Source: Myxococcota bacterium
GTDB lineage: Bacteria > Myxococcota_A > Polyangia > Nannocystales > Nannocystaceae
Length of the DNA: 64,000 nt
Reading direction: 5' to 3'
Assembly: GCA_039028615.1 (NCBI GenBank)
Contig: JBCCHT010000007.1
Span: forward strand, 96,001 to 160,000
A program made the translations under genes and the position numbers. Of the stretch, positions 5,641 to 21,420 are shown in pieces. Each line of letters opens with the position of its first letter. Position 1 is the stretch's first letter. A model generated the notes under the pieces. That model made no database searches. It was not told the DNA's origin and worked only from the letters and a program-made list of their open reading frames with translations.

Positions 5641-6897
5641 TCAGTCGACCTTGCAGATCTCGTCAGTGTCGAACTCCGCTTCGTAGTCGACACCCGGGAT
5701 GTCGAAGCCACGGGTCTTGGCGTACTCCGACATGAACTTGTCGTAGAGCGCGTCGGGGCACTCGTCGCCGACCTTGGCCGCCTCGAATCGCGTGGCGAGC
5801 TGCGACTGGATCTCGTCGGTCAGCTCGCGGTCGTCCATGCGAAGCAACCCTTCGTCGTCGAGGGTCGGCCCCGCCTCGCCGAAGTGCTCCTCGAACATGC
5901 GCTTCATGCTGGCGGCCGGGTCCTCGTGGCCTTCGCCCATCACGTCGAGCAGGTGGGCCAGGTAGAACGAGACCCCCGGGATGCCGCCCGACGCCTCGGT
6001 CACCACCGCCGGACCCTCCACCGCGATGGCCCGCCCCGACACGCGCTCCTGCAGCAGCACGTCGAGCGCCTTGGTGGTGTGCTCGAGGTCGGCCTTGGCC
6101 AGACCGATGAGCCCCTTGCGATAGACCCCCTCGTTGAGCGGGTTGCCGCGGTAGCTGATGGTCAGCAGCGAGAAGCCCTCGGACAGCACGTCGGCGGCCA
6201 GCAGCGTCGACATCCAACGATCGACGATTCCACCGCCCATGACGTAGATGGTGCCGATGGCCTCCTCGGGGGTGCCCGGCTCCACCGTCATCTCGACCAC
6301 GCGCGAGGGCTCGCCCTTGCGATCGTTGCGGCCGGTGAAGGTCTTGATGTTGACCGGGTTGCCCAGCGCACGCAGGGCGCTGTTGACCGCCTTGCCCGTG
6401 CGGGGGTCGAGCGCTCGCGGAGCGGCCAGCGACCAGATGACGCCGTCGATCTTGCCGCCGAAATGCTCTTGGATCTCGGCCACCACCGCGTCGCGCACCG
6501 CCGGGTCGAATGCGTCGCCCTGCACCGTGCGAGCGACGAGGCCTCGCGCCCGGAGCCCGCGCTCGAGCGCGACGTTGCGATGAAAACCGGGCGAGCCGAT
6601 CTTGCGGTTCTTGTTGTTGCTCTCGGGCGAGGGCAGCGCGTCGAGCGAGAGGTTGAGGGTGTTGGCGCCGCGGCACATGCCGAGCACCGCTCGCGCCGCG
6701 CTCCCGAAGCCACCCGAGCCGCCGACGATCAGCCAGTTGCCTCCCGATCCCGGCTTGGGCGCCTCGGCCGGCGCCACCGCCTCGAGCATGGCCTCGGCCG
6801 CGCGCTGAGTCCCGACCGGATGGAAGTTGCCGGGAAAGATCACGTGGCCCATGCCGGCGATGAAGCGATACTGGAACTTCGGGATCGCGAGCTTCAT
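5641..6897 (-). CDS. fabV: trans-2-enoyl-CoA / enoyl-ACP reductase, FabV family
   Basis: LIVGGSGGFGSAAR Rossmann motif, GDAFD, WSLAAP, TIYVMGG, Y-x8-K (YRKGLIGLAK), VVTEASGGIP, GLLRMDDREL. Confidence 0.85.
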   Translation of the reverse strand: MKLAIPKFQYRFIAGMGHVIFPGNFHPVGTQRAAEAMLEAVAPAEAPKPGSGGNWLIVGGSGGFGSAARAVLGMCRGANTLNLSLDALPSPESNNKNRKIGSPGFHRNVALERGLRARGLVARTVQGDAFDPAVRDAVVAEIQEHFGGKIDGVIWSLAAPRALDPRTGKAVNSALRALGNPVNIKTFTGRNDRKGEPSRVVEMTVEPGTPEEAIGTIYVMGGGIVDRWMSTLLAADVLSEGFSLLTISYRGNPLNEGVYRKGLIGLAKADLEHTTKALDVLLQERVSGRAIAVEGPAVVTEASGGIPGVSFYLAHLLDVMGEGHEDPAASMKRMFEEHFGEAGPTLDDEGLLRMDDRELTDEIQSQLATRFEAAKVGDECPDALYDKFMSEYAKTRGFDIPGVDYEAEFDTDEICKVD

Positions 6898-7041
6898 GAC
6901 GAAGCGGGTCGTAACACATCAGCGCGAGAGCCCGCGAGCGGAGCCGCGCAGCCGCCCATGACCGTGGCGACGCTCACGCGCACGCCCCTGCACGCCCGCG
7001 CCCCGTTTGCCTTGTTCCGGTCGCGATGAAACCCTGACCGA

Positions 7042-7446
7042 GTGACCGACACGGGCCTAGAGATCGAGAAGCTCTGGAGTGCGCTCAAAGGCCTCGAAAT
7101 CGGCCTGCTCCCCGAGGAAACGACGGTGCCCACCGTTCGCATCCAGGTCGAGGGCGGGGGCGTGCTCGAAGTGTTCCGCGCCCAGGTCGTGGAGGCCGCG
7201 ATGGTCGCGTGGCGGGTGCGTGGTTTCACCGACGATGGCTCGGTTCGCCTCGCCGTGATCCTGGGGACCCAGGATGGTCGCGCGATGGTGACCGAGCGCG
7301 TCATTCCCGAGCAGGCCAGCACCGTGGTCGCCGGGCTCGTGACGAACTTCGAGACGAGCACGCGGAGCATCAGCGACCTGTCCGAGGCCATCGCCGTCGC
7401 GATTCGCGAGCGCATGGGCGACCCGATTCCGCCCGGCAAGAACTGA
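7042..7446 (+). CDS. hypothetical protein
   Basis: 134-aa ORF with normal composition and GC3 bias filling the gap between fabV and the kinase. Confidence 0.6.
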   Translation: MTDTGLEIEKLWSALKGLEIGLLPEETTVPTVRIQVEGGGVLEVFRAQVVEAAMVAWRVRGFTDDGSVRLAVILGTQDGRAMVTERVIPEQASTVVAGLVTNFETSTRSISDLSEAIAVAIRERMGDPIPPGKN

Positions 7447-7448
7447 GG

Positions 7449-10115
7449 TCACCGTCGCGGCAGCGCGTCCGCGACTCCGTCGCCGTCTTCGTCGACCGGG
7501 GCCGCGCCGTCGAACCAATCGATCTCGGCGACGACCTCCGTCTCGATCCCCGTGGGGTGCACGCTCCGCGTGGGCACGTCGAGCTTCATGACCTCGTGGG
7601 GTCCTTCGCCGCCCGTGGTGAAGAACAAGGTGCGAGCGTCGGCGCCGTAACTCATGGCCGTCAGTCCGGGTGGAGTCACCAGTCGGCCCGTGGTCGCGAG
7701 CACCTCGGCCGACAAGGCCTCGTCGTAGATGCGGACCTCGTCGATCGAGCCGGGGAAGCTCTGTCGACAAACGTCGGTGTCGAGGCCCGAGCGACGACAG
7801 GTGGCGCGACGACCGTTGCCGATGACCAGCGGCACGTCGTTGCCCGGCATCGCGCCCTTCACCGGAGTGCTGGCGGTGAGCGCCCCGTCGACATACATCC
7901 GCAGCATCGCGCCGTCGTAGGTGACCGCCAGCTCGTACCAACGGTCGCGCTCCAGGCCCCGCGGGTGCCGAATCGTCTGGGGACCCGTGCTCGTCGTCAT
8001 GGAGAACGCGGGGCGCATCTCGGCCACGCGAAGCTGGAACGCACCATCGGTCTCGGCTCGGTCCGTCTTCGACATCAGCATCGTGTGCGCGTAGCTCCGC
8101 GAACTCATGTCGTCGACCTCGATGCGGAACCGGGCGGTCATCGTGAACGCGGCGAGCCCCGTCAGCCAAGCCGGCGACCCACACTCGAGCCGTCCGTCGT
8201 CGAGGAAATTGGCGACACGCCCCACCACGCCCTCGTCGGCCTGCTCCTCGTCCTCGATCGTCACCGGTCCGATCACGGTGCACGACGGGGGTGAATCGCC
8301 GAGCCGGGGCGCCTGCCCGTCGAACGACTCGAAGAAGCGCGGGCGATGGAGGGTGCTCTCGACCACGATCGAGCTTCGCACCATGACCGCCAGGTGCTCG
8401 CCCTGCGGGTCCCAGGCCGAGCGCCCGCAGCACTCGGGCGCAAACACGGGCATGGGCTCGAAGCGCCCCGCGTCCACATTGACGAGACCCGGCTGCGGCG
8501 GGATGCGCCCCTCGTTGACCCCCGGACCGTTGCAGCGAGACCCGAGCGCCACCACCGAGCCGTCGCGGGGGTTGATGGAGGGGAACATCAGCACCACCTC
8601 CGGCTGGATGAAGTGGCGTCGCTGCGAAAAGGGCCGCTCGGGCTCGACGCGAAAGAGCGTCTCGGCACAGCCGGGCCCGCGGGAAAAGAGCAGACCCTTG
8701 CCATCCGGTTCCCAGCTCAGCCCGCGGTACTCGTTGTTGCTGAGCGTGTCGGCGATGGTCTCGAAGCCACCGCCGTCGAGGCCGAACGTGTGCAGCCGCG
8801 GGATGCCGTCGTAGTCGCCGTCCGGGGTGCGATCGGACATCACGGCGATCGTGTCCTTGCGGGGGGAGACCATCGCCCCGGAAAACTCGTTCGAGATGCC
8901 ATCGCTGGTGAGCCCTTCGGTCATGCGGACCCGGGCCGAGCCGTCGTCGCGGACCAGCCACACCTCGGCGCGACCGCTGGCGCGGGAGATCGTCGTCAAC
9001 CATCCCCCCTGCGGCTCCGGGGTGGGCTGCACTCGGGCCTCGGCGACGGCGGGAGGCTCGGTCGACAGAGGTTCGGCCGTCGGCAACGCGAGCCACACTC
9101 CGGTCGCCGCCAAGGCGCCCAGCGCCCCCGCGCCCAGCACGGGTCCGAAGCGACGTCCTCGCGTCGGGCCACCGTGCGCCCACCGACGCAACGCCGGCAT
9201 CAGCTCCTCGCGAAGCTCGGCGATGGTCGCATGGCGTTCCTCGGCCTGGCTCGACCACGCCCGCACCAAGGGCTCGCGAAGGGCCAGCGGGAGCAAATCC
9301 GCGGAGTCGTCGTCCAAGGTCCACGGAGGTCGTCCCGTCGCCGCCTCGATCAACGTCACCGCCACCGCGTACACCTCGGAGCGCACGTCGTAGTAGCCCG
9401 CGTGGTGCTCCGGGGCCATGTACGCGGCCGTGCCCGGAGCCGCGCCCGTTCGCGTCAGCTTCTGCTCCGTCTTCACCAGCCCGAAGTCGAGCAGCTTCAC
9501 GTAGGGCGGGGTCGCGGACCAGAACACGTTGGCGGGCTTGATGTCGCGATGCAGCACCGCGGGGTGCAGCGCCGACAGCCCGTCGAACAACCCCTCGGCC
9601 AGGCGTAGCAGCTCGTGGGCGCGAAGCGGCCCGTCACGCAGCCGCTGCGCCAGGTCCATGCCCTCGAGGTGCTCCATCACCATATACGGACGCTCGTTCC
9701 AACGGCCCACGTCGAGCAGTCGCACGATGTTGGGGTGTCGAAGTCCGGCCAGCGCATTGGCCCCATTGACGAAGCGCTGCTCGGCCTCGTCCGCCGAGAG
9801 CAGGAGGATCTTGATCGCCACCTTCAGCGCTGGAACGGCAATATTGTGCGCGGCCCAGACCACCCCGAAGCCACCCGCCCCGAGGCGATGATCGAGTTCG
9901 AAGTTGCCGAGTCGCAGCCCCGGGCAGAGTTCGTCGGGCTCGGCCAGCCCCTCGTGTGCCGACAACGTCGAGCGCGGCGGCGGGATGTCGCCCTCCGCCA
10001 CGTGGGCGAGCAACTTGGCCAGGCCGTTGCGTTCGGCCTCGTCGAGCTCCTGCTCGGATGGCGAGTCGTCGGGCATCGTCCTGGGAAGTCGAGTGCCATC
10101 AGGATACTCTGACAT
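7449..10115 (-). CDS. membrane Ser/Thr protein kinase with periplasmic TolB-like propeller and LamG-like domain
   Basis: LGAGGFGVV, VAIK, HRDIKPAN, DFG, GTAAYMAPE; one TM helix; SPRKDTIAVMS and WEPDGKGLLFS blades; LamG hallmarks WYELAVTYDG...MYVDG and FPGSIDEVRIYDEALS. Start 10115 or 10076. Confidence 0.9.
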   Translation of the reverse strand: MSEYPDGTRLPRTMPDDSPSEQELDEAERNGLAKLLAHVAEGDIPPPRSTLSAHEGLAEPDELCPGLRLGNFELDHRLGAGGFGVVWAAHNIAVPALKVAIKILLLSADEAEQRFVNGANALAGLRHPNIVRLLDVGRWNERPYMVMEHLEGMDLAQRLRDGPLRAHELLRLAEGLFDGLSALHPAVLHRDIKPANVFWSATPPYVKLLDFGLVKTEQKLTRTGAAPGTAAYMAPEHHAGYYDVRSEVYAVAVTLIEAATGRPPWTLDDDSADLLPLALREPLVRAWSSQAEERHATIAELREELMPALRRWAHGGPTRGRRFGPVLGAGALGALAATGVWLALPTAEPLSTEPPAVAEARVQPTPEPQGGWLTTISRASGRAEVWLVRDDGSARVRMTEGLTSDGISNEFSGAMVSPRKDTIAVMSDRTPDGDYDGIPRLHTFGLDGGGFETIADTLSNNEYRGLSWEPDGKGLLFSRGPGCAETLFRVEPERPFSQRRHFIQPEVVLMFPSINPRDGSVVALGSRCNGPGVNEGRIPPQPGLVNVDAGRFEPMPVFAPECCGRSAWDPQGEHLAVMVRSSIVVESTLHRPRFFESFDGQAPRLGDSPPSCTVIGPVTIEDEEQADEGVVGRVANFLDDGRLECGSPAWLTGLAAFTMTARFRIEVDDMSSRSYAHTMLMSKTDRAETDGAFQLRVAEMRPAFSMTTSTGPQTIRHPRGLERDRWYELAVTYDGAMLRMYVDGALTASTPVKGAMPGNDVPLVIGNGRRATCRRSGLDTDVCRQSFPGSIDEVRIYDEALSAEVLATTGRLVTPPGLTAMSYGADARTLFFTTGGEGPHEVMKLDVPTRSVHPTGIETEVVAEIDWFDGAAPVDEDGDGVADALPRR

Positions 10116-10123
10116 CGACCCCG

Positions 10124-10786
10124 GTGACCGAGACCTCCACCATAGAAGAGGAGCGAGAGCAGCTCGCACGGTGGCGAGGAGGCGATCGTGAGGTCGGTCA
10201 GGCACTGGTCTCCAAGCACTATCTGCGGGTATTTCGGCACTGCCGCGGCCGCCTGATGGATCGAAACGCGGCCGAGGACGCCGTTCAGGTCACGTTCATG
10301 CGCATGCAGCAGCAGAAGATCGGCCTGCGCGGCCGCCTGCTGCCCACCCTGCTCAAGGTGGCCGAGTACGTCTGCCGAGAAGCCAAGCGCGACATGAACA
10401 AACACGGCCACGCCGGTCGGGTCTCGCGACTGAAGACCGACCGCGCTGTGGAGTCCATGATCGACGTCGCCCGCGAGGAGGACCTCGTGTGGCGGATCAT
10501 CGAGCGCCACCTGACCGAGCAGGAGCGCCACATCCTCGAGCTGAAGTACCTACGCGGGCTCGAGGGCGCCCAGATCGGCCTGCTCATCGGCGAGGACGAG
10601 GAGGTCAAGGTTCGACACCGCGTCCGCAAGATCAAGCTGAAGATGCAGGCCGAGCTGGAGAAGCTCACCACGGACACCGAGTTCGTGCGCTCGGCTCTGC
10701 ATACGCTGGACGAATGGACCCGCACGGTACTCGAGCGACGAGATCGCCAGGGAGCGCCCGTCACCGAGCTGGACGACTGGGCGTGA
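10124..10786 (+). CDS. ECF-type RNA polymerase sigma-70 factor
   Basis: LARWRGGDREVGQALV (region 1.2/2), AAEDAVQVTF (region 2.2), LTEQERHILELKYLRGLEGAQIG (region 4), C-terminal TLDEW extension; GTG start inferred. Confidence 0.85.
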   Translation: MTETSTIEEEREQLARWRGGDREVGQALVSKHYLRVFRHCRGRLMDRNAAEDAVQVTFMRMQQQKIGLRGRLLPTLLKVAEYVCREAKRDMNKHGHAGRVSRLKTDRAVESMIDVAREEDLVWRIIERHLTEQERHILELKYLRGLEGAQIGLLIGEDEEVKVRHRVRKIKLKMQAELEKLTTDTEFVRSALHTLDEWTRTVLERRDRQGAPVTELDDWA

Positions 10787-10796
10787 GCGTCGATGT

Positions 10797-12128
10797 CTAC
10801 AGGTCGACGGGGGCGTAGGTGATGTCGATCAACGAGGAGAGCGTCGACCACTCGCGGACGAGCTTGTCGCGCGCTTCTTTGCCCACCAGCACCTGGGTCT
10901 TGCCGCTCTCGTCGATGTCGAGAAACAGGTTGGTGACCCGCTCGTAGTTCGCCAACGCGAACTGAGAGTGCGTGGTCATGATGATCTGACAGCCGCCGAT
11001 CTTGCCCTTCTTCCTGCGCTCGATTCGCTCCTTGGTCAGGTCCACCAGGTACTCGTAGAAGTGATACTGGTTGAGCGGTGACAGGTGCAGCTCGGGCTCG
11101 TCGAGCAAGAACACGCAGCCGGAGGCTTCGAGGCACTCGGTGAGGATCAACAGGCTCAGGATCTCGTTTTCACCCGAGCTGAGAAAATCGACGGCCCGGG
11201 GCTTGTCCGTGGGACCCATCGTCACCGTCGCCGTGATCTCGTCGCCGTACGCCTCGTCCGGCCACGGCTCGCCAACAGGCCACGGCTCTCGCGGCGCGTC
11301 GGGGTCGGCGCCTTCGGGGCGAGGCTTGAAGTACTGGAACGTGACGTCGTGGAGGTCTCGGGCGACGAGCTTGGTCAGATCATCGTCGTCGTCGAGCTTG
11401 GGGTCTTGGATCTTGCGCCACGCTCGACGCAGCCGCTCGGCCCCCAAAAGTCGCGCCGACGGGCCGCGTGGGTCCTCGATGGCATGGAACCGTCGCACCA
11501 CCGTCGCGGCGAGCGTCTCTTTGAGGTGCTTGGGGCTCTCCCGCAGGTCCATGCCCACGCCGTAGTCGTACATGTCCGTATTGGCGTAGGACATGAAGGA
11601 GTGCGGAGGCACGAAGCCCTCCCGCTTCTTCCGCAGGTCCTTGATCCGCTTGGGAGGCCGAAGGCGCCCCTTCTTGCCGTTGTCCCGGCTGAACACCGAG
11701 TGCTCTTGCTTCTCGCCCGCGTCGACCTTCTTCGGCCGGCTATAGCGGATCTCGTCTTGGAGCTTCTCGTAGTCCTCCTTGCGCAGCGACACGTCCGAGG
11801 TCTCGTCTGCGGTGGCCCACCAGTGCTCGAACTTCCCCTCCGCCAACGCCACGGTCAGGTGATCCGGGTCGCTGCTGTGAAAGGCGACGTGGTGCTCGTG
11901 TGGACCGAGCCGGTAGCACAGCCGTACGGTCGCCAGGGGCTGACCCACCTCGTCTCGCCAGGGGATCTCCGGGCTGTGCCCCAGCAGGGCGAGGGCCTCG
12001 AGCAGCGTCGTCTTGCCCGCACCGTTACGACCGCTGACGACCACGAAGTTCTTCTCGAGGACGGTGGGCTCATCCTGGTCGAGGCCCTTGAGTCCTTCGA
12101 TCTGAAACGAACGAATCACGAGGCTCAT
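10797..12128 (-). CDS. soluble ABC-type ATPase (AAA_15/AAA_21-like, OLD/PtuA/AriA-type fold), putative defence sensor
   Basis: IRSFQIEGLKGL N-terminus, Walker A SGRNGAGKTT, signature LSSGE, Walker B/D-loop FLLDEPELHL, H-loop IIMTTHS; AGGAGG RBS; no TM segments; 443 aa. Confidence 0.9.
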   Translation of the reverse strand: MSLVIRSFQIEGLKGLDQDEPTVLEKNFVVVSGRNGAGKTTLLEALALLGHSPEIPWRDEVGQPLATVRLCYRLGPHEHHVAFHSSDPDHLTVALAEGKFEHWWATADETSDVSLRKEDYEKLQDEIRYSRPKKVDAGEKQEHSVFSRDNGKKGRLRPPKRIKDLRKKREGFVPPHSFMSYANTDMYDYGVGMDLRESPKHLKETLAATVVRRFHAIEDPRGPSARLLGAERLRRAWRKIQDPKLDDDDDLTKLVARDLHDVTFQYFKPRPEGADPDAPREPWPVGEPWPDEAYGDEITATVTMGPTDKPRAVDFLSSGENEILSLLILTECLEASGCVFLLDEPELHLSPLNQYHFYEYLVDLTKERIERRKKGKIGGCQIIMTTHSQFALANYERVTNLFLDIDESGKTQVLVGKEARDKLVREWSTLSSLIDITYAPVDL

Positions 12129-13531
12129 GCGACCTCCTGCAGGCACTCGCTCGCTCGGCGGGCGTACTCGTCGACGAATTCCATGAGCGGTCGGCCAACG
12201 GCTGGGCTCGGCACTTCCGCCTCCACCCAGCGGTGGTTCGAGCACCCTCGGGCCTTCAGCAACCGGTGAATGGCGGCGGTGACGTGGCCGTGCTGATCGA
12301 GATCGATGAACACTCGGCCCTGCTGGCAGATCCGCTCGATGTCGGCGCGCGAGGGGTACTCGGCCAAGTGGGGTAGATCCGAGTGCCGGGCATCGTGGTA
12401 GTAGATGCGAACCCGGGGCGGCCTCTCATCCCCCTCCGCCTGGTGCCACAGGATGGCGTTGCGAAGGGCGATCGCTGCGATGGTCTGGTCCTTGTCTTGA
12501 ACGCTGGCCAGGATGTACACGGGGGTGGCCGGGCGACTGTCGTCAACGCCGAAGCTCGTGCTCTGGGGCTCGGCGAGCGTACGCAGGACTCGCACGAAGC
12601 CGCTGTGATCCCAAGGGCGGTGCTGGTGGTAGAGCCACACCTGCGCCCCGCGTTCGTGCCACTGCTTCCACCGCGCTTCGTCGACCTCGAGGTGGCCGAT
12701 GAGGATCGCCGACTGACGCCCCTTGTACATATCGAGCGCCGCGTCGAGATGCGGATCCAGACCGCTCGACCCCAACACCAGGAGGTGGTGCTTCTTGCAG
12801 TCCCGCAAGAAACGGTCAATCAGCCGCTGTCGCTCTTCCGTTCCGTAGTCACAGACGGTGAGCGTCATCGTAGGCGGGTCACTCACCGTGCCGTGCAGCT
12901 TGACCACACAAAAGCCCTCGTACTTGTCGAGCTCTCGGTGATGCGTCGTGATGATGTGGGGAATCGTGCCGCGATTGCGAAGGGCGAGGGCGCCCTCGAG
13001 TGCCAGGTCGTAGTTGGTCGTATAGAACCGCTTCGTCGGGATCCGGGCCGCCAGGTGGTGCACGTACTGCGGCACCATGTGGTCGCTGGCGAGAAGCTCT
13101 GCCAAGTAGCTGCGAAAATCTCCGTCGTCGTCGGAACTCCTTTCTAGGCACGACCTCCGGATCTTCGTTGCGATGTCCTGAAGTTCCTCGAGGGTGAGCG
13201 ACTCTTTCGACAGCGCCTCCGAGACGCCCGCAGAAGAGAAGGCGTCGGAAAGCTCGGTCAGCAGTCCCTTCCAGGTGGGCATGGAGCTGCCGTCCGTGCG
13301 CTGGAGATAGGTGCTCAACCCCGCCCCGACATGGGTGATGAATCCCGTCCCTCCTCGAACGGAGGCTGGCGTCAGCCAGTCGAAACGAAGCTTGCCGATG
13401 TCGTGATTGCCGAGAAACGACGGCGGATCGGCCGACGCTTCGATGAGCTGCTGTTCCTCGAGCAACTGATTTTTGATGTGTGTGCGGTATTCCTTGATCT
13501 TGCTTCTGAGGGTTCGCTTGCTTTCGTTCAC
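12125..13531 (-). CDS. SIR2-family (SIR2_2-type) NAD+-processing protein with extra C-terminal domain
   Basis: VGAGLS, MPTWKGLL, FYTTNYD, VVKLHG, LLVLGSSGLDPHL motifs; GTG start at 13531 with AGGAGG RBS; stop overlaps ATPase start (ATGA). Confidence 0.88.
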   Translation of the reverse strand: MNESKRTLRSKIKEYRTHIKNQLLEEQQLIEASADPPSFLGNHDIGKLRFDWLTPASVRGGTGFITHVGAGLSTYLQRTDGSSMPTWKGLLTELSDAFSSAGVSEALSKESLTLEELQDIATKIRRSCLERSSDDDGDFRSYLAELLASDHMVPQYVHHLAARIPTKRFYTTNYDLALEGALALRNRGTIPHIITTHHRELDKYEGFCVVKLHGTVSDPPTMTLTVCDYGTEERQRLIDRFLRDCKKHHLLVLGSSGLDPHLDAALDMYKGRQSAILIGHLEVDEARWKQWHERGAQVWLYHQHRPWDHSGFVRVLRTLAEPQSTSFGVDDSRPATPVYILASVQDKDQTIAAIALRNAILWHQAEGDERPPRVRIYYHDARHSDLPHLAEYPSRADIERICQQGRVFIDLDQHGHVTAAIHRLLKARGCSNHRWVEAEVPSPAVGRPLMEFVDEYARRASECLQEVA

Positions 13532-13714
13532 GGGGCCTCCTGTCCGAGGCCGCCGGGCGCCGTCCGCCCTGGCCTCAGCGTGTACTGATGGCCAGAGCCC
13601 GCGCGTAACCCGCAAAGTGCATTTTTCTCCGAACTTTTCTGCTGCCCCGCCCTACTCCCTCGAATTCACCCGAATACGACCAACCAGCCGCCGCGTGTAC
13701 CATGGCGCCCGACC

Positions 13715-14212
13715 ATGCCGCTGCGCTCTTCCCTGCCTTCGCTGCTCGCCCTGCTGCTGGCCGCTGCATGCACCGGACCGGCCGGCCCCGGACCGCAGGA
13801 GGCCAACTTCCCCAAGGGCAGCCGCACGAGCGCCAACGCGGCGCTGCAGCTGGAGCTCACCGCGGCGCGCTACGAGATGCGCTTGGTCTCGATCGAGGTC
13901 GCGCTGCACAACCCGGGACAGACCGCCCTCACGCTCGAGCGGCAGGGCATCCTGCTCGAGTACAACCAGCTCGAGTTTCCGGTGACGGACTTGGGCACCG
14001 AGGTGCTCGCGAACGAGATCGTGGTCGACCCGGGCGCGACGATACAGCTCCAGCTGGGCTTCGTGACGGAGCAGGCTCTGCTCGAAGCGGCGAAGCTGCA
14101 CGTGATGTCCATCCGCCGCGGCCCGGAGAGCTGGGCCGAGCCGCTGACTATCGCGGTGCCGCCTCCCGCCGCGTTCGTCGACGCAGCGACCGAGCCCGAT
14201 CCCGAAGCATAG
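13715..14212 (+). CDS. hypothetical lipoprotein
   Basis: LLAAAC lipobox; beta-rich (Ig/DUF4352-like) mature part; TACCAT -10 upstream. Confidence 0.7.
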   Translation: MPLRSSLPSLLALLLAAACTGPAGPGPQEANFPKGSRTSANAALQLELTAARYEMRLVSIEVALHNPGQTALTLERQGILLEYNQLEFPVTDLGTEVLANEIVVDPGATIQLQLGFVTEQALLEAAKLHVMSIRRGPESWAEPLTIAVPPPAAFVDAATEPDPEA

Positions 14213-14269
14213 GCCGGAAGGTCCATCGCCGCCGAGCCAAAAGCCCGGCGGCAATGGTGCGAGTCCTCG

Positions 14270-15745
14270 CTACTCGCCGGGCTCGACCTTGACCTGGAAG
14301 CCCTTCTTGAACTGGTTCTGCTTGCGGCCGTTGATGACCACGTTGGAGGTCTCTTCGAGGATCTTCAGCGTGACGGTCTTGCCGGAGACCTTGGTCACCT
14401 CGACCGTGGCGATGCCCATCCAGCCGCTCATGGTCATGCGACCCATCTGGCGCTCGAAGTGGCGGGACATGGACCCCTTGGTCCCCACCGCGGGCCGAGC
14501 ATCGGAGCTGGCGCGGACCCGCACCGTCTTGCCCTTGCGGGATTCGATGGTGCCCTCGAGCAAGGGGCCGACGGCGGCCGGATCACCACCCGCGGCCGGG
14601 TCGTCGCCCGCCTCGGCGACGGCAGGCACATAGGTCGACGCCGGCATGGCGGCAGTGGAGAAGCAGGAAATCCGCCCGTCGCGATCGCCCGCACAGGCGA
14701 TGGTGTTGTCGGCCGAGGCCCCGAGCCACTCGCCCGTGCGGTACTTCTCCGCCTTGGGGTCGTCCAACGACTTCCCCTCCTTCTCGCCCGCGGAGTAGAG
14801 CACGAAGCCATCGGAACCGGTGGCGGCGATGAGGTCGGGCGCCAACCAGGTCGCGCCGGTCAGCCAGGAGCCGCACCCGTGGGTGCCGACCACCTCCCCG
14901 CTCCCGACATCGTAGATGCGGGCCTCGAAGCTGCCGTCCTGCACGAATAGCCGCGTGCCGTCGGGCGAGGCCGCCATCGCAGTAGGGCGACGGTCGGTCC
15001 GCACCAGCTCGCGGGTGGCCTTGGTCGCCATGTCGTGAATGAAGGTGCCGCCCTCCTCTTCACCCGCCGCGACCCAGCGGTCGTCGGGCGCCACGGCGAC
15101 CCCCTCGACTTCGTCCGGCACGGTGAAGCTGTCGACTTCTTTGAGGGTCTTGGTGTCGACGATGTGCACCGCCCCCTTCCGGCTACCGAGCGCGACGAGG
15201 GACCGACCCCAGCCGACGACCTCGATGTCGCGCGAGCCGACCTTGCCCACCACCTTCTGCGCGAGGGTGGGAAACTCGAGGGTGCGAATCTCTCCGCTGC
15301 CGCAGAGGATCAGGCCTTCGGTGTCGGACACGATGCGGAGGCCGTTGTCGGCGACGTAACACGTGCGCGCGCTCTGGAGGATGCGACCGTCGTCGCTGGC
15401 GAGGACCCGGAGGTTGTTGCGACCTGCGCTCAAGACCCAGCCCGAGGGCGCCACGGCGATCGCATTGTTCCAGTCATCGGTGTCCTGGCCCCACGCGAAG
15501 GCGAAGGTGGGGCGCGGCGGCGGGGCTTCGACCGCCTCCTCGACCTTCGCGGCGGGGGGCGTCTCGGCGGCGGCCGTCGGTTCGGCGGCAGGACCCGAGT
15601 CGTCGGGGCGGGGCGCAGCAGCGACGTCGGGTTCGGGTGGTGAGGTCGGTGCGGGGGCGCCCGAGGTACGACATGCGGCCGACGACAGGGCACAAACCGC
15701 GCTCAGCCCGAGGGCGAGGCGGTACGACGAAGCAATGGGGGGCAT
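14270..15745 (-). CDS. WD40/beta-propeller lipoprotein
   Basis: SSAAC lipobox, Pro/Ala linker, repeats AIAVAPSG, GVAVAPDDRWVAAG, AMAASPDGTRLF. Confidence 0.8.
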   Translation of the reverse strand: MPPIASSYRLALGLSAVCALSSAACRTSGAPAPTSPPEPDVAAAPRPDDSGPAAEPTAAAETPPAAKVEEAVEAPPPRPTFAFAWGQDTDDWNNAIAVAPSGWVLSAGRNNLRVLASDDGRILQSARTCYVADNGLRIVSDTEGLILCGSGEIRTLEFPTLAQKVVGKVGSRDIEVVGWGRSLVALGSRKGAVHIVDTKTLKEVDSFTVPDEVEGVAVAPDDRWVAAGEEEGGTFIHDMATKATRELVRTDRRPTAMAASPDGTRLFVQDGSFEARIYDVGSGEVVGTHGCGSWLTGATWLAPDLIAATGSDGFVLYSAGEKEGKSLDDPKAEKYRTGEWLGASADNTIACAGDRDGRISCFSTAAMPASTYVPAVAEAGDDPAAGGDPAAVGPLLEGTIESRKGKTVRVRASSDARPAVGTKGSMSRHFERQMGRMTMSGWMGIATVEVTKVSGKTVTLKILEETSNVVINGRKQNQFKKGFQVKVEPGE

Positions 15746-16005
15746 GGGCCCGAGGCTAGCGCCCTGCGGGTAGGCGGCACGGGGCGCGAGGCGAATCCCG
15801 TTCTTCCGCGGCCCAACGCCGATCTAGCCCTCGCCCGGCCAAGGAGACTCTTCGCCGCCCCGCGCTCGAATAGGGCCCCGCCGACGATCGTCGAACCCGA
15901 ACGAGCCCGCTCGATCGAGACACTGCGGCCCCGCCCTGACACCAGTGTCGCGATCGCGAGGCGCCAAACCGGAGCCAAATGCCCGTTCTGTGACCCCGTG
16001 CATGT

Positions 16006-16021
16006 TGGCACCATGGTTGCA
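16006..16021 (+). promoter_or_regulatory. sigma-54 (-24/-12) promoter
   Basis: TGGCACCATGGTTGCA matches TGGCAC-N5-TTGCW; palindrome GACAC-CA-GTGTC at 15938-15949 upstream could be an enhancer site. Confidence 0.7.
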
Positions 16022-16033
16022 CAACAGCGCGGC

Positions 16034-17059
16034 ATGCCTTGGTTGAGACTTGCTGCTGCGCTTACGTTGCTCCCCTCCGCCCTGATGCTCGGGGCTTGTG
16101 ATCACCAGGTGGAAGAGCCCGACGAGGACCTGGTCGCCGACGGGGAAGACGAGCCGCTGGACGAGGAGGACAGCGACGGCAGCGAGGAAGACGAGGACGA
16201 GGACGACAACGACGGCCAGGACGACGACACCGACAACGACGACCAGGACGACGACGACACCGGTGGTCCTCCGCCCAGCAACGATCCTCCCGCCCCTCGC
16301 CCGGACGCCGCCGTGCTGTGCGACTTCGACGTGTGGAACGGCTACGAGTGCATGACCGACGACGGTCAGGAGGGCACCAACTACTGCATCATGGTCGACG
16401 GCGAGGAATTCTACACGCCGTGCTCGACCGAGCCCCCCAGCTGCCAGCCGGGCGACGGCTGGGATAAAGGCTGCGTGGGCGAGATCTGCTACTGGGACGG
16501 CGACTCCTTCGAGCGGTACTCGTGGAGCGAGGACGACTGCAACACGCCGCTGGTCGTCAACTTCGAGTCCAGCCCCATCGAGTTCTCCCCCGCCCGGGCC
16601 GCCTCCTTCGATCTGAGCAGCGACGGGAGCTGCATGAGCACCGACTGGCCCACCGCGCCCTGGCTCGCCCTCGATCGCGACGGCGACGGCTTCATCCGCA
16701 GCGGCGCCGAGCTGTTCGGCAGCGCGACCAAGATGTCCTCCGGCGGCTACGCCGAGCATGGCTTCGCCGCGCTGGCCGAGCTCGACAGCAACCGCGACGG
16801 CAAGATCGATCAAAAGGACGATCGCTTCGGCGAGCTGGTGCTGTGGCACGACCTCGACGAAGACCGCGTCGGCGCCTACGGCGAGCTTCAGCCAGTGGCC
16901 CAGACCTCGCTCGTGTCCATCGACCTGAGCTTCGACCGCCGAGCGCAGTGCGACTCGAAGGGCAACTGCGGCTACGAGCGCACCGCCTTCGAGTACCGCA
17001 CCTCGCAGGGTGACGTGGCCACGGGCGAAGTGGTCGACGTGCACGTGGCCTGCCGCTAA
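16034..17059 (+). CDS. calcium-binding lipoprotein with FrpC self-processing-module-like domain (copy 1)
   Basis: LGAC lipobox; Asp/Glu-rich tract; Cys-rich region; TPLVVNF...WLALDRDGDGFIRSGAELFG...HGFAALAELDSNRDGKID...LVLWHD. Confidence 0.85.
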   Translation: MPWLRLAAALTLLPSALMLGACDHQVEEPDEDLVADGEDEPLDEEDSDGSEEDEDEDDNDGQDDDTDNDDQDDDDTGGPPPSNDPPAPRPDAAVLCDFDVWNGYECMTDDGQEGTNYCIMVDGEEFYTPCSTEPPSCQPGDGWDKGCVGEICYWDGDSFERYSWSEDDCNTPLVVNFESSPIEFSPARAASFDLSSDGSCMSTDWPTAPWLALDRDGDGFIRSGAELFGSATKMSSGGYAEHGFAALAELDSNRDGKIDQKDDRFGELVLWHDLDEDRVGAYGELQPVAQTSLVSIDLSFDRRAQCDSKGNCGYERTAFEYRTSQGDVATGEVVDVHVACR

Positions 17060-17126
17060 CCGGTCGGTGCCCGAACAAGGCCTGGGTGAGACCTCGCGGT
17101 CCGCCCGGGCCTCGTTGCGTCTGCGC

Positions 17127-17711
17127 TCAGAGCAGCCGATCGAGGCGCTCGACCACGGTCGAGCGGACCTTGGACGACAAGAATACCCCGGGCACGTGGC
17201 GCAGCATCAGCTCCCAGCGGAAGCCCTCGCGCCGGCGATGATCGGACGCGATGTACTGCCGCAGCTCCAGCGCCGACTCGCGGTGAAAAGCCCACAGCAC
17301 GTGCCCGCGCACCTCGATCTGGTAGTGCGCATCGTGAGGCCAGCGCAGCGTATGCCGCCGCCCCAGCCCGCACGACGGGCAGCGCACCGCCCCCGCGTCG
17401 GTGCCGAAGCAGCGGTGACCATTGCGAGGCGGGCGCCAGTGCGACGGCTCGTACCCGGGGGGCAGGTCGGCGATGACCTGCTCGGGCGCCCCGTGGAGGG
17501 TGGCGTGGAACAGCGCCGCCACCCAACGACTGCGGGTGCCTTCGCCGATCGTGCGGCAATCGAAGTGCGAGCTCCGCTCGAAGAACTCGCGCTCGTCCGT
17601 CCGCTTCACCCGCACCGCGGTCGCAAACTCGAAGCGCGCCGGCTCGCCGCACTTCGGACACCGCACGTCGAGCCGATGCGGCATCGGGTTCCAGTCGTAG
17701 GGCCCCGTCAT
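17127..17711 (-). CDS. hypothetical protein with two CxxC motifs (split Zn-ribbon)
   Basis: VRCPKCG and VRCPSCG; C-terminal LWAFHRE...Y...LRHVP; start at MTGPYDWN inferred. Confidence 0.7.
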   Translation of the reverse strand: MTGPYDWNPMPHRLDVRCPKCGEPARFEFATAVRVKRTDEREFFERSSHFDCRTIGEGTRSRWVAALFHATLHGAPEQVIADLPPGYEPSHWRPPRNGHRCFGTDAGAVRCPSCGLGRRHTLRWPHDAHYQIEVRGHVLWAFHRESALELRQYIASDHRRREGFRWELMLRHVPGVFLSSKVRSTVVERLDRLL

Positions 17712-17827
17712 CTGCGCTGCCGCCTCGGCCGAGGTCGAGATGAGGGTCGGACGGCCACGGAAACGACGATACGCCGCTCGCAGCACTTTTTCGCAATCGA
17801 AATCGGCGCCCGTCCGCTTTCTCCCGC

Positions 17828-18319
17828 GTGACCCCCCGCCCCTTGCCCCCCGCAGGGCGGTCGGTGTTCGCATTCGTCGTCGGTCTGCTGGTCGCGAGCG
17901 CGCCCGGCTGCCGCGATGACGAAGCCGCGTCCCCCGATCTCCCCCTCGACGCCCCCTGGACCCCCGGCAACGGCGAGTTCGACGACTCCTGCGAGCAGGG
18001 CTGCGAGGAGTTCCTGGAGCTGACCACGCCCCACTCGGGAGAGCTCGATCTGCGCCTCGCCACCGAGCTCGACGATCCCTTGGCGCAGTGGGGCGAGTGC
18101 ATCGGGACCTTCTTCGCGTGCTGGGGCGACGAGCAACGCCCGGTCCCGGAGTGCGTGCAGGCAGCGACCTGCCCCGCCGCGTGCAAGGCCGAGTTCACCC
18201 GCCAAGTGGTCGACGCCGAGGACGAAGAGCAAGAGATCCACGCATTCAACCGCGTGTTCGTGGATGACGACGCGCCCTGCCGGGCCCCCGACGACGACGC
18301 CCCGGAGGCCTCGCCATGA
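17828..18319 (+). CDS. Cys-rich lipoprotein
   Basis: APGC lipobox; 8 further Cys; stop overlaps next gene start (ATGA 18316-18319). Confidence 0.75.
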   Translation: MTPRPLPPAGRSVFAFVVGLLVASAPGCRDDEAASPDLPLDAPWTPGNGEFDDSCEQGCEEFLELTTPHSGELDLRLATELDDPLAQWGECIGTFFACWGDEQRPVPECVQAATCPAACKAEFTRQVVDAEDEEQEIHAFNRVFVDDDAPCRAPDDDAPEASP

Positions 18320-21300
18320 AACGCATCGCGCATGCCACCGCCGTCCTGGCCGTGCTGTCGACCCAGGTCGGCTGGGACACCCAGACGGTCGGTCCGGCCA
18401 ACAACCAGTGGGAATCGCTGTACATCTTTCCGCCCGAGACCAGCTCGCCCGGCGACCGCTTCTATCTCGGCATCCCCCAAGAACCGTCGCTGGTCACGGG
18501 CAACGAGCACACCGAGCTGAGCCACATCGCGATCCAGCAGCTGGGGTGGACGCAGCTGTACGGGGAGCTGCCCGCGGTGATCGACCTCAACGAGTCGGTC
18601 TATCGCCGCCACCAGCTGCAGGTCCCGGTGAGCCCCGGCTTCAGCGACGCCTACGGAGACGTCACCGACACCGGGCTCACCGAGCGCGCCATTCCCCATC
18701 CGGCTCGGTTCTCCGGGACCGCCGACTACAGCTACACCGTTGCCGACTGGCTCAACAAAAATCAGTTCTGCCCCGCGCTGCCCGAGGGCGTGCCCCAACG
18801 CGACGAGTGCCACACCTTCGAATACTGGCTGGGCGCGGTGTTCAACTCGAGCCACTTCGGCGACCAGGCCACCGCGGTCTACAAGCACTATCACCGCATC
18901 GCGATGGCGTTGGCTCGCAACGCCCAGTTCATGGGCGCGCAGCTCGAGGCCGCGATCGACCAGGGCCGCGCCGACCAGACCGAGCTCGAGGCCTACGTCC
19001 GCGAGGCGGAGCTCGAGGCGTTGATCTACGAGGGCTACGCCCAGCACTACCTGCAAGACCGCTGGTCTTCGGGGCACATGTGGAACCGGTGGAACGCACC
19101 GAGCTACGAAGCCCAGGAGGCACCGATCCGCGAAGAGGCCGAGCTGTCGCCCCACCGGGTGACGGGGCTGGTCTCGGGGATGATCCACGGCGGCGAGGCG
19201 AAACTGAAGAACCTGGCACTCGCCGGCGTGGGGCTGCCCCGCGAGCTGGTGGCCGACCCGATGTGCTCGCCCGTCATCGGCAAGGACGCGCAGGGCAACG
19301 ACGCCGCGCTGGGGGTCGACCACGTCGACCGGGTGTGTGCGGACTCGGGGGCGAACCTCGCCAGCTGCACCGATCCGGGGGTCGGCGACTACCGCCTCCG
19401 CGACATGATGCGATCGCAGTTCGGGGCCAGCTACTACGGGCAGGACTACCCGCTGGACGTGGACGGCCAGCGCACCGAGATGCTGGCGTGCTCGACCGCG
19501 GGCTGGGCCGACGTCGCCAGCCAGTTCCACGACGACGGCTCCGGCCGCTACGGCACCTTCGACCTGACGCTTCCTTCCGGCACGGCCCGCTTCACCGACA
19601 GCAGCCTCGACGAGGTCCAGGTCGGCGGGGCGCGGGTGCGTTGCTGGGACCAGTGGGCCACCAACACCGCGATGAGCCAGGGCCGGGCGCTCCGGGTCGT
19701 GCTCGGTGCCGCCTACCTCGGCCGCGTGGTCGTCCGCTTCGGGCCTCGCTTCTCTCGACTGCTGAAGTTGGTGAAGGGCCAGGACCTCGTCCACCTGTAC
19801 GAGCAGATGATCCTGGCCCGCAACCGCGATCCAAACGGCACCACGCTGGCCCGCAACTGGCAGCCGGATCCCCCCGGTCCCTTCGTCAGCAACAACTACG
19901 GCCTGCTCTCGCTGCAAGGCAGCAAGCCCGGAGGCGAGTACGTCGACGCCATCCCGGCCGCCTACCACGAGCCGGTCGACGGCGGGACCAGTACGCCCTT
20001 CGACGAGCTTCCCGACCAGAGCGACGCCTACGGCACCGCGTGGAGCCACACCGAAGAGCGCACGGAAGAAGCCGCCCGTCCCGGTCTGGACAAGCACACG
20101 ATCTACGGGTTCTTCAACAAGGCCCATAGCCACTACTGGTGCGCCGAGGCGGGGAACAAGCTGCCCTGGAACGACGAGGTCGACCTGTTCCTCACCGGCG
20201 ACGACGACGAGCGCACGCACCCGCGGCAAGGCATGCGCATGCCGGTTCCGCGCCCCGAGGAGGCCAAGGAGCAAGGCGAGACCCTGCGTCGACTCGATGC
20301 CTGCGTGCTCATGGCCGACCGCCTCTACCAGGGCACCCGAGCGTTCTATATGCCCGAAGGGGAGCGAGAGTACCTGGGCGAGTCGGCCGAGTCTCGCCGG
20401 GTGGAGCACGGAGGCGTGGGCCGCCCCGAGGTCGATGCGCCGTGCTCCGTGTTCGCCGACGTCGAGTTCCCCGGCTGGGAGGACAACCCCCGGGACCTGC
20501 ACCCCGGCTATGTCGTCGCCACCGACCCCGAAGACGCGGACAGTGGCCCCTACCTCCAGCGAGAACGCTACGACCACGCCTACTACGAGAGCATCGCCAA
20601 CTGGTGCCGGGCCCTTCCCGTGGTCAACGTCGACACCAACGACATGGCGGTCGACGAGTCCGGCGTTTCGCTCAACGTGAGGCCGGGCATCACCGAGTCG
20701 GGCGAGGTGTCCTTCGCGGATTCCGTGCTCAACCCCCACGTCACCTTGCGCGGGTACAACTTCGGCGACATCGAGGGCCGCGTGCGTCTCGACAGCATCA
20801 ATGGCTGCGTCGACGTGGTCAACGTCTCGCCCTTGGCCGACATCGTGTCGTGGAGCGACCGCGAGATCACCATTTCGGTCGACAACACCCGCTTCATTCC
20901 CGACCTCTACGACATCACGATCATCCGGGACGACCGCAACGAGGACGGCGGACGCGTCCGCTCCGTGGGCCGAGCCCGCCTGGACATCTCGGTGGCGGTG
21001 TTCACCGACGTCGCCAGCCCCGGCGCTCCCCTGCCTCCAGCGAGCAGTAACCAGCCCTTCCGCGCGATCCATCCCTACTGCGACGGTGGCGTGCCCTTCC
21101 GTCACGAGATCTGGGACTGCACGGAGCTCGCCACGACTCAGCTGGTGGACTGCGGCGACGACCAGGTCGGCGCGGGCACCCGCCTGTGGAACGACGAGGG
21201 GCCCTTCGACCCGCAGCCCGGGCCCTGGGACGAGCACACGTGGACGGTCGACCAGGTCGGCACCTGCGAAGACATGTTCTTCCCCTCCGCGGCGTGCCCC

Positions 21301-21420
21301 GACCACGTGCCCGCCTACTACGGGCTCACCTATCGCTTCGACCGTCTGAGCAACGACCCCATCACGGCCACCGATCGCACCTGGAGGTTCGTCCTCGGGT
21401 GGGCTCGGCCCGGCCTCTAG
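18316..21420 (+). CDS. large secreted protein with Zn-dependent phospholipase C/P1-nuclease-like domain and IPT/TIG-like domain
   Basis: Signal peptide followed by Trp; NEH, ADY, NSSHF, H-x3-D-x5-H (HYLQDRWSSGH); VTLRGYNFG...IVSWSDREITISV near C-terminus. Confidence 0.75.
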   Translation: MKRIAHATAVLAVLSTQVGWDTQTVGPANNQWESLYIFPPETSSPGDRFYLGIPQEPSLVTGNEHTELSHIAIQQLGWTQLYGELPAVIDLNESVYRRHQLQVPVSPGFSDAYGDVTDTGLTERAIPHPARFSGTADYSYTVADWLNKNQFCPALPEGVPQRDECHTFEYWLGAVFNSSHFGDQATAVYKHYHRIAMALARNAQFMGAQLEAAIDQGRADQTELEAYVREAELEALIYEGYAQHYLQDRWSSGHMWNRWNAPSYEAQEAPIREEAELSPHRVTGLVSGMIHGGEAKLKNLALAGVGLPRELVADPMCSPVIGKDAQGNDAALGVDHVDRVCADSGANLASCTDPGVGDYRLRDMMRSQFGASYYGQDYPLDVDGQRTEMLACSTAGWADVASQFHDDGSGRYGTFDLTLPSGTARFTDSSLDEVQVGGARVRCWDQWATNTAMSQGRALRVVLGAAYLGRVVVRFGPRFSRLLKLVKGQDLVHLYEQMILARNRDPNGTTLARNWQPDPPGPFVSNNYGLLSLQGSKPGGEYVDAIPAAYHEPVDGGTSTPFDELPDQSDAYGTAWSHTEERTEEAARPGLDKHTIYGFFNKAHSHYWCAEAGNKLPWNDEVDLFLTGDDDERTHPRQGMRMPVPRPEEAKEQGETLRRLDACVLMADRLYQGTRAFYMPEGEREYLGESAESRRVEHGGVGRPEVDAPCSVFADVEFPGWEDNPRDLHPGYVVATDPEDADSGPYLQRERYDHAYYESIANWCRALPVVNVDTNDMAVDESGVSLNVRPGITESGEVSFADSVLNPHVTLRGYNFGDIEGRVRLDSINGCVDVVNVSPLADIVSWSDREITISVDNTRFIPDLYDITIIRDDRNEDGGRVRSVGRARLDISVAVFTDVASPGAPLPPASSNQPFRAIHPYCDGGVPFRHEIWDCTELATTQLVDCGDDQVGAGTRLWNDEGPFDPQPGPWDEHTWTVDQVGTCEDMFFPSAACPDHVPAYYGLTYRFDRLSNDPITATDRTWRFVLGWARPGL

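Follow-up and report, generated by a model that had tools for sequence, protein, structure and literature searches.

A SIR2-ATPase operon in a Myxococcota genome

We analyzed a 64,000-nucleotide (nt) stretch of a Myxococcota genome (contig JBCCHT010000007.1; hereafter the window, to which all positions refer unless a locus is named), in which an earlier note, made from the sequence alone, had singled out a SIR2 gene coupled to a stand-alone ATP-binding cassette (ABC) ATPase gene as a candidate undescribed anti-phage system. Both genes lie on the minus strand. The upstream gene (12125..13531) starts with GTG and encodes a 468-amino-acid (aa) SIR2_2 protein, recognized by the open reading frame (ORF) call, Pfam family PF13289, a match to ThsA and a structural match in the Atlas. 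The downstream gene (10797..12128) encodes a 443-aa ABC ATPase that resembles the heads of Rad50 and SMC proteins, has no long coiled coil and is a member of what we call the DxRESPK family. Stop and start codons share an ATGA overlap (12125..12128, minus strand), and each gene is preceded, 4 nt ahead of its start, by an AGGAGG ribosome-binding site (RBS) on the same strand, located at 13536..13541 for the SIR2 gene and, within the SIR2 coding sequence, at 12133..12138 for the ATPase gene. The coordinates, overlap, protein sizes, RBSs and motifs of both proteins given in the earlier note were all recovered on this strand.

The two-gene operon is real. A single assembled contig from the probable source run covers positions 6085-20000 with zero differences, indicating that the operon junctions are not a mis-assembly. 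A scan for promoters and terminators found none, and a repeat scan returned short degenerate repeats only, with no att site or terminal repeat recognized. The A/T richness noticed by eye was borne out: GC content is 0.636 in the operon and 0.683 on average in the genome, which places the operon at the 2.6th percentile of 4,438 genomic windows. This low value comes mostly from the SIR2 gene, which alone is clearly atypical (GC at third codon positions, GC3, of 0.81; percentile 4.6 among 5,946 called genes, or 1.2 when ranked within the 738 genes of four contigs); the ATPase gene has a GC3 of 0.876, at percentile 35.5.

The ATPase and its relatives

All expected motifs of the ATPase are intact (GRNGAGKT at residue 33, LSSGEN at 316, LLDEPELH at 341 and TTHS at 385); Walker A spans aa 33-40, including Lys39 (12009..12032, minus strand). 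The protein ends 54 aa past the H-loop, where the earlier note had estimated about 55, and the absence of a TOPRIM domain and of a long coiled coil was likewise upheld: an AlphaFold2 (AF2) model built from 94 sequences (pLDDT 87.9) has a longest helix of 23 aa. Pfam assigned the protein to PF13304 (67.7 bits) and PF13175 (57.4 bits), the AAA_15/AAA_21 group. In structural comparisons of the fold, VIA Z scores were 19.9 for Rad50, 17.6 for Ec83 PtuA, 14.7 for PARIS (8ux9) and about 13 or less for transporter nucleotide-binding domains, and the top Foldseek matches of the model were the retron/Septu PtuA structures 9n6c and 8eea. The model thus supports a non-transporter ABC ATPase of the Rad50/PtuA/AriA type.

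A protein search with the ATPase yielded 20 relatives at E<1e-12 that have one invariant stretch in common. This signature, NTDxxxxGxxxDxRESPK (aa 183-200; 11529..11582, minus strand), comes right after the strand at residues 179-183, probably at the Q-loop position. Searching 1.84 billion representatives with a profile returned 109 proteins at E<=1e-30; below a rank of about 135 the signature was gone: exact NTDxxxxGxxxDxRES[PV]K occurred in 111 of the 144 top proteins (P0002 and P0007-P0149, including fragments and one non-member), and DxRES[PV]K in none of the 14 next-ranked. The ATPase reaches no curated NCBIfam cut-off, and its PADLOC matches are partial only (AriA, the best, at E 3e-19; PtuA; Mad3). 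Judged by sequence, the ATPase belongs to a separate family, distinct from the PARIS and Septu ATPases. The earlier description of a PARIS/Septu-like sensor therefore holds for the general ATPase type but not for the family, whose usual partners, as described below, are membrane proteins.

Two subclades were apparent, NTDMY, to which the window's ATPase belongs, and NTDLN, whose members mostly carry C-terminal transmembrane helices. The position of the window's ATPase in the tree is unstable: FastTree placed it with P0008/P0031, and IQ-TREE with the flavoprotein fusion P0164 (88/84, with a long-branch warning), so we claim no order of events. Elsewhere in the family, one locus (L005:1-2686) has two family ATPases in tandem with a U gene (see below) between them, and at another (L019:5311-7050) the ATPase is spread over three ORFs, either frameshifted or decayed.

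Partners of the ATPase family

An exact DNA motif scan, which misses motif variants, located 18 family loci in 185,579 genomes (8 phyla; the duplicate loci L002 and L003 counted once), and a metagenome scan added 6 more, for a total of 24. Two membrane-protein genes recur: U, upstream of the ATPase gene, at 11 loci, and M at 14, with U or M present at 18. Upstream DNA of at least 900 bases was available at 21 of the 24 loci, and U is the upstream gene at two of the remaining three. Because 9 of these matches went into each of the U and M profiles, most are self-matches; the U proteins are also linked to one another by pairwise BLAST. The window's subclade comprises 13 loci (L009 being placed there by signature only), and at 11 of the 12 where the slot is visible, U occupies the overlapped upstream slot, most junctions being overlaps of 4-8 nt or gaps of <20 nt. 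In the window operon, the SIR2 gene sits in this slot.

Other domains appear in the same setting. TIR was found at 3 of the 24 loci, as a fusion with U in L004 and L010 and as a weak separate ORF in L015; the N-terminus of L015, which may resemble EAD, had no Pfam match. A family ATPase is fused behind an FAD/NAD Rossmann protein in P0164 and P0009 (weak Pfam E of 0.003 for P0164), and in P0130 to a Lon/BrxL-like C-terminal domain. The six loci with neither U nor M consist of two with a downstream Ion_trans_2 gene plus MntH or ZupT, three with a lone ATPase bearing a transmembrane tail, and one in three pieces. In the first two, the ATPase, the downstream Ion_trans_2 channel gene and the transporter gene are all low in GC (L016:1757-4796 with ZupT; L024:3217-6795 with MntH).

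M belongs to no Pfam family and occurs in L004, L006, L009-L013, L015, L020, L021, L023 and L025-L027, in divergent orientation in L023 and L026. It weakly resembles E. coli MntP (hhalign probability 28%, E 6e-4); the MntP family PF02659 had no match in 5 genomes, 3 of them M-bearing, so the likeness comes from hhalign alone. Three unrelated metal-transporter types surround one ATPase family.

The SIR2 protein

The SIR2 protein consists of an N-terminal helix (aa ~2-32), the SIR2 domain (aa ~60-324) and a C-terminal alpha/beta domain. It matches Pfam SIR2_2 (PF13289) at E 2.8e-14, with GAGLS at residue 69, TTNYD at 171 and KLHG at 211. The closest solved proteins are ThsA SIR2 domains (8wc0, E 5.3e-6), with which the TTNYD and KxHG motifs align; Asn173 (13013..13015, minus strand) and His213 (12893..12895, minus strand), both intact, correspond to the TTNYD Asn and the His of ThsA. 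Residues 46-324 superpose on a SIR2_2 model in the Atlas with a template-modeling (TM) score of 0.81 by target. By likeness, then, the protein is probably a ThsA-type NADase.

The C-terminal domain (aa 325-468; 12128..12559, minus strand) is an orphan, with a predicted four-strand, three-layer alpha/beta fold drawn from low-confidence secondary structure. No homologues were found among 217 candidates, no Pfam match at E<=10 and no feature match in the Atlas; the best structural match, to Transketolase_C models, has a TM score of 0.62, under the bar for naming. A TIR identity, suggested by eye, was rejected as unsupported: hhalign against 5 TIR domains scored 10.1, within the range of 30 shuffles (8.5-17.1). 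The single-sequence AF2 model of the SIR2 protein was poor (pLDDT 41.6), and a Foldseek search with it, which gave no match at E<=0.001, was uninformative. Elsewhere in the source genome, on contig C23, another SIR2_2 gene forms a coupled pair with a 195-aa gene, HAM1/ITPase-like by eye, recalling KomBC (L049:843-2271).

Comparison with described defense systems

The earlier note could match the pair to no named system, and that judgment stands: the pair lacks the defining features of PARIS, Septu, Thoeris, SIR2-HerA and Menshen, and the ATPase is not an LmuB by the Lamassu criterion. Its suggestion that the pairing was undescribed holds in part only. Table S5B of Rousset et al. (2022; PMC9122126) lists as system 147 an unnamed SIR2_2 plus AAA_15/AAA_21/SMC_N pair with 14 occurrences in the P2 defense hotspot, labeled "likely a NADase". 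Like the operon in the window, system 147 as tabulated has two genes, a SIR2_2 gene and a gene for a compact AAA_21-type ABC ATPase; unlike it, and as far as 400/413 characters read by eye and unaligned allow, its ATPase lacks NTD...RESPK and has another signature and Walker B, and its SIR2 protein is shorter. The generic SIR2 plus AAA_21 layout is therefore already on record there, unnamed and with another ATPase type. Literature searches by words, which cannot query a sequence motif, turned up neither an account of the DxRESPK family nor a named system of SIR2 and a compact ABC ATPase; the ABC classification of Krishnan et al. (2020) may list the family.

Septu (PtuA with the HNH protein PtuB) and retron I-A PtuAB use a compact Rad50-like ABC ATPase to control a separate effector, as the window operon would. 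They differ in that neither a PtuB HNH nor a reverse transcriptase (RT) gene is present in the window (46 window proteins by PADLOC; 14 around the operon), and in that the putative effector gene here lies upstream of the ATPase gene. Identity is 11-17%, PADLOC matches to PtuA are partial, and the curated PtuA model NF041760 scores 27.4 bits against a cut-off of 500. PARIS (AriA with the TOPRIM protein AriB) and AbiL likewise use an AAA_21 ATPase as sensor or antitoxin, and the AAA_15/AAA_21 domain that identifies it is found here, but neither the window's ATPase nor its neighbors include a DUF4435/TOPRIM partner, fused or separate.

Lamassu with a Sir2 effector (LmuA-LmuB with or without LmuC) also places a SIR2 gene upstream of an SMC/Rad50-like ATPase gene, and its effectors are swappable, FMO included (PMC12663957). 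LmuB, however, has about 600-800 aa and coiled coils, compared with 443 aa and none in the window's ATPase, and the operon has no LmuC. For the LmuA ABC-3C C-terminal domain, no Pfam match was found in aa 325-468 at E<=10, and the PADLOC LmuA match spans the SIR2 part only. ThsA of Thoeris has the closest solved SIR2 domain and shares the arrangement of SIR2 plus a C-terminal alpha/beta domain, but the match gives out near aa 269, neither a STALD/SLOG nor a Macro match was obtained, and the window holds no ThsB TIR gene. Menshen (NsnA-NsnB-NsnC; PMC12065111) combines a coiled-coil-less ABC ATPase with polymorphic effectors; the window has no ParB-DUF262 NsnA gene and no DUF3696 tail, and Walker B reads EN in NsnB as against DE here. 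Finally, the motifs of SIR2 NADase effectors (GAGxS, TTNYD and the catalytic His) are present in the window's SIR2 protein, whereas the partner is an ABC ATPase, unlike in SIR2-HerA, SPARSA and DSR: there is no HerA or short prokaryotic Argonaute, and at 468 aa the SIR2 protein has no long DSR sensor region.

Genomic context

The pair is, on sequence comparison, strain-specific within the order, neither gene having a match in 72 other genomes. Its neighborhood is variable as well: examination of 4 relatives in the genus of the window's organism showed differing contents in the interval beside the 13715 gene, with similar lipoprotein genes in two; in one relative this interval has a single small gene, and in the congener L034 it holds a kinase-sigma pair without the operon, another AAA_21 ATPase and a type I HsdM. 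In this congener (G444; L034:9674-17501), the AAA_21 ATPase is accompanied by a 309-aa partner lacking a Pfam family. Elsewhere, too, the family sits in accessory cassettes. GC content within the cassettes is below that of the flanks at most loci (for example L010 0.44, L013 0.32, L016 0.38, L024 0.40; not so in L007, L008 and L022), and the Caulobacter cassette occurs in none of 12 congeners, in 10 of which dnaN and grpE lie close together.

Within the window, PADLOC (46 called proteins, E<=1e-5) gave no match to HNH, HerA, Argonaute, RT or TOPRIM models, in agreement with what the earlier note had said of the first four, and the only other matches were generic ones to kinases and methyltransferases. 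A Ser/Thr kinase-LamG gene (minus strand) and an extracytoplasmic function (ECF) sigma factor gene (plus strand), divergent from each other, occupy 7449..10786 and are probably outside the module; the operon converges on the sigma gene, whose end lies 10 nt from the ATPase stop. The two genes are head-to-head, with about 10-50 nt between their likely starts, and in L034 sigma and kinase genes are in tandem, possibly reflecting a local inversion. Farther along (17828-21420), the window encodes a 1034-aa protein without a Pfam match, overlapped by a small lipoprotein-like gene. Conflict genes lie near a few family loci, with Cse1 at L016 and a caspase-like protein at L023. Six weak viral loci (63-99 bits) scored far below family members and were excluded from the counts.

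Discussion

We postulate, at about an even chance, that the operon is an effector-swapped immune module of the abortive-infection type, in which the DxRESPK ATPase would control the SIR2 NADase. The ATPase would be the conserved switch and the coupled upstream gene an exchangeable effector, usually the multi-pass membrane protein U, sometimes with a TIR domain, and here a SIR2 NADase. Septu, PARIS, Lamassu and Menshen offer the analogy: an ATP-bound ATPase oligomer would keep SIR2 inactive, possibly through the orphan C-terminal domain; an infection cue would alter the nucleotide state, freeing or assembling SIR2; and the active enzyme would deplete NAD+ and arrest the cell. A conserved ATPase whose coupled partner can be a membrane protein, a TIR-membrane protein, a channel, a flavoprotein or SIR2 makes such a switch-plus-effector module the simplest account. 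The Rad50/PtuA-like fold, the ThsA-type residues, the occupancy of the U slot, the conflict-type domains in the family and its sporadic spread would fit this reading, as would the hypervariable site, the Caulobacter cassette absent from congeners and the independent SIR2 plus AAA_21 cassette tabulated from the P2 hotspot.

Several observations weigh against it. The earlier note had given a lack of co-occurrence of homologues as one refuting condition; SIR2 lies beside the ATPase at none of the 24 family loci, so that the pair is known from one genome, and among 8,000 scored candidates the SIR2 protein has no close relatives, only three weak ones (24-28% identity over less than half its length). 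A conserved pairing is so far not supported. The source genome carries 9 SIR2_2 genes, and -4 overlaps are common in it (78 of 658 co-oriented pairs). The window is no defense island, most family loci sit between housekeeping genes, no exact motif match was found in viral contigs, and plasmids gave no match to P0002 or P0013. The operon is plausible as a defense module rather than an established conserved system.

The main rival is a recent juxtaposition, which draws its weight from the uniqueness of the pair and the differing codon usage of its genes and which we regard as rather unlikely: the ATPase would be the remnant of a U-ATPase-M cassette stripped of its membrane genes, and a stand-alone SIR2 defense gene would have entered the same variable site, co-transcribed with the ATPase but not controlled by it. 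Ranked by codon adaptation among 5,946 heuristically called genes, SIR2 stands at percentile 4.2 and the ATPase at 33.7, suggesting that the two may have met recently. A six-frame search of the source genome (96.7% complete) found no U match at E<=10 and a best M match at E 0.54, although, U being divergent, the search could have overlooked a remote copy. In the tables of Rousset et al. (PMC9122126), stand-alone SIR2_2 genes occur commonly in defense hotspots, and the site here is hypervariable. Against this reading stand the intact motifs and family signature of the ATPase, its own RBS and exact -4 coupling in the U slot, and the existence of a second soluble-enzyme form, the short-tailed fusion P0164.

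A role outside defense seems to us quite improbable: the family would use ATP to regulate ion or metal flux, or membrane stress, with SIR2 as an NAD-dependent signaling or ADP-ribosylating partner rather than a suicide enzyme. It derives from the resemblance of the partners to MntP, MntH, ZupT and K+ channels. The partners met most often resemble ion or metal transporters (M, weakly MntP-like, at 14 of 24 loci; MntH and ZupT each at a single locus, adjoining channel genes in cassette-like low GC), which allows a non-defense role and further tells against our preferred interpretation, as does the scarcity of defense clustering. On the other side, the ATPase fold is Rad50/PtuA-like rather than that of a transporter nucleotide-binding domain, extreme rarity and patchiness are ill-suited to homeostasis, and swaps of TIR, SIR2, flavoprotein and Lon-like domains are of a kind that conflict systems typically show. 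Pores and ion flux, moreover, commonly serve as immune effectors.

That the pair forms a myxobacterial signaling or programmed-death circuit with the neighboring ECF sigma factor and Ser/Thr kinase is very unlikely: all four genes occupy one variable interval lying between the 7042 and 13715 genes, but the sigma and ATPase genes are convergent, no kinase-sigma pair was noticed on inspection beside the ATPase at the 24 family loci, a relative has such a pair at this site without the operon, and the codon usage of the kinase is host-like.

Returning to the effector-swapped module, we consider the ATPase family a more interesting find than the SIR2 pair itself. In a broader proposal, conceivable though doubtful, DxRESPK ATPases would be an undescribed class of immune switches, Rad50-like and free of coiled coils, that normally gate membrane effectors (U, a K+-channel-like protein, an MntP-like exporter), killing or arresting the cell through ion or metal flux, and that can take soluble enzymes (TIR, SIR2, flavoprotein, Lon-like domain) in their place; the window operon would be the membrane-free, NAD-depleting version and, if so, the easiest to reconstitute. 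The compact ABC ATPases of Septu, PARIS and Menshen control nucleases, and a family controlling membrane proteins, perhaps transporters of metals or ions, with a NADase swap, would broaden the roles of such ATPases. The operon would then offer a soluble model of two proteins showing how unrelated effectors can be accommodated by one ATPase scaffold, and the invariant signature is a cheap way to find all members of the family. Should the two genes merely have come together recently, the family would still constitute an uncharacterized set of accessory cassettes.

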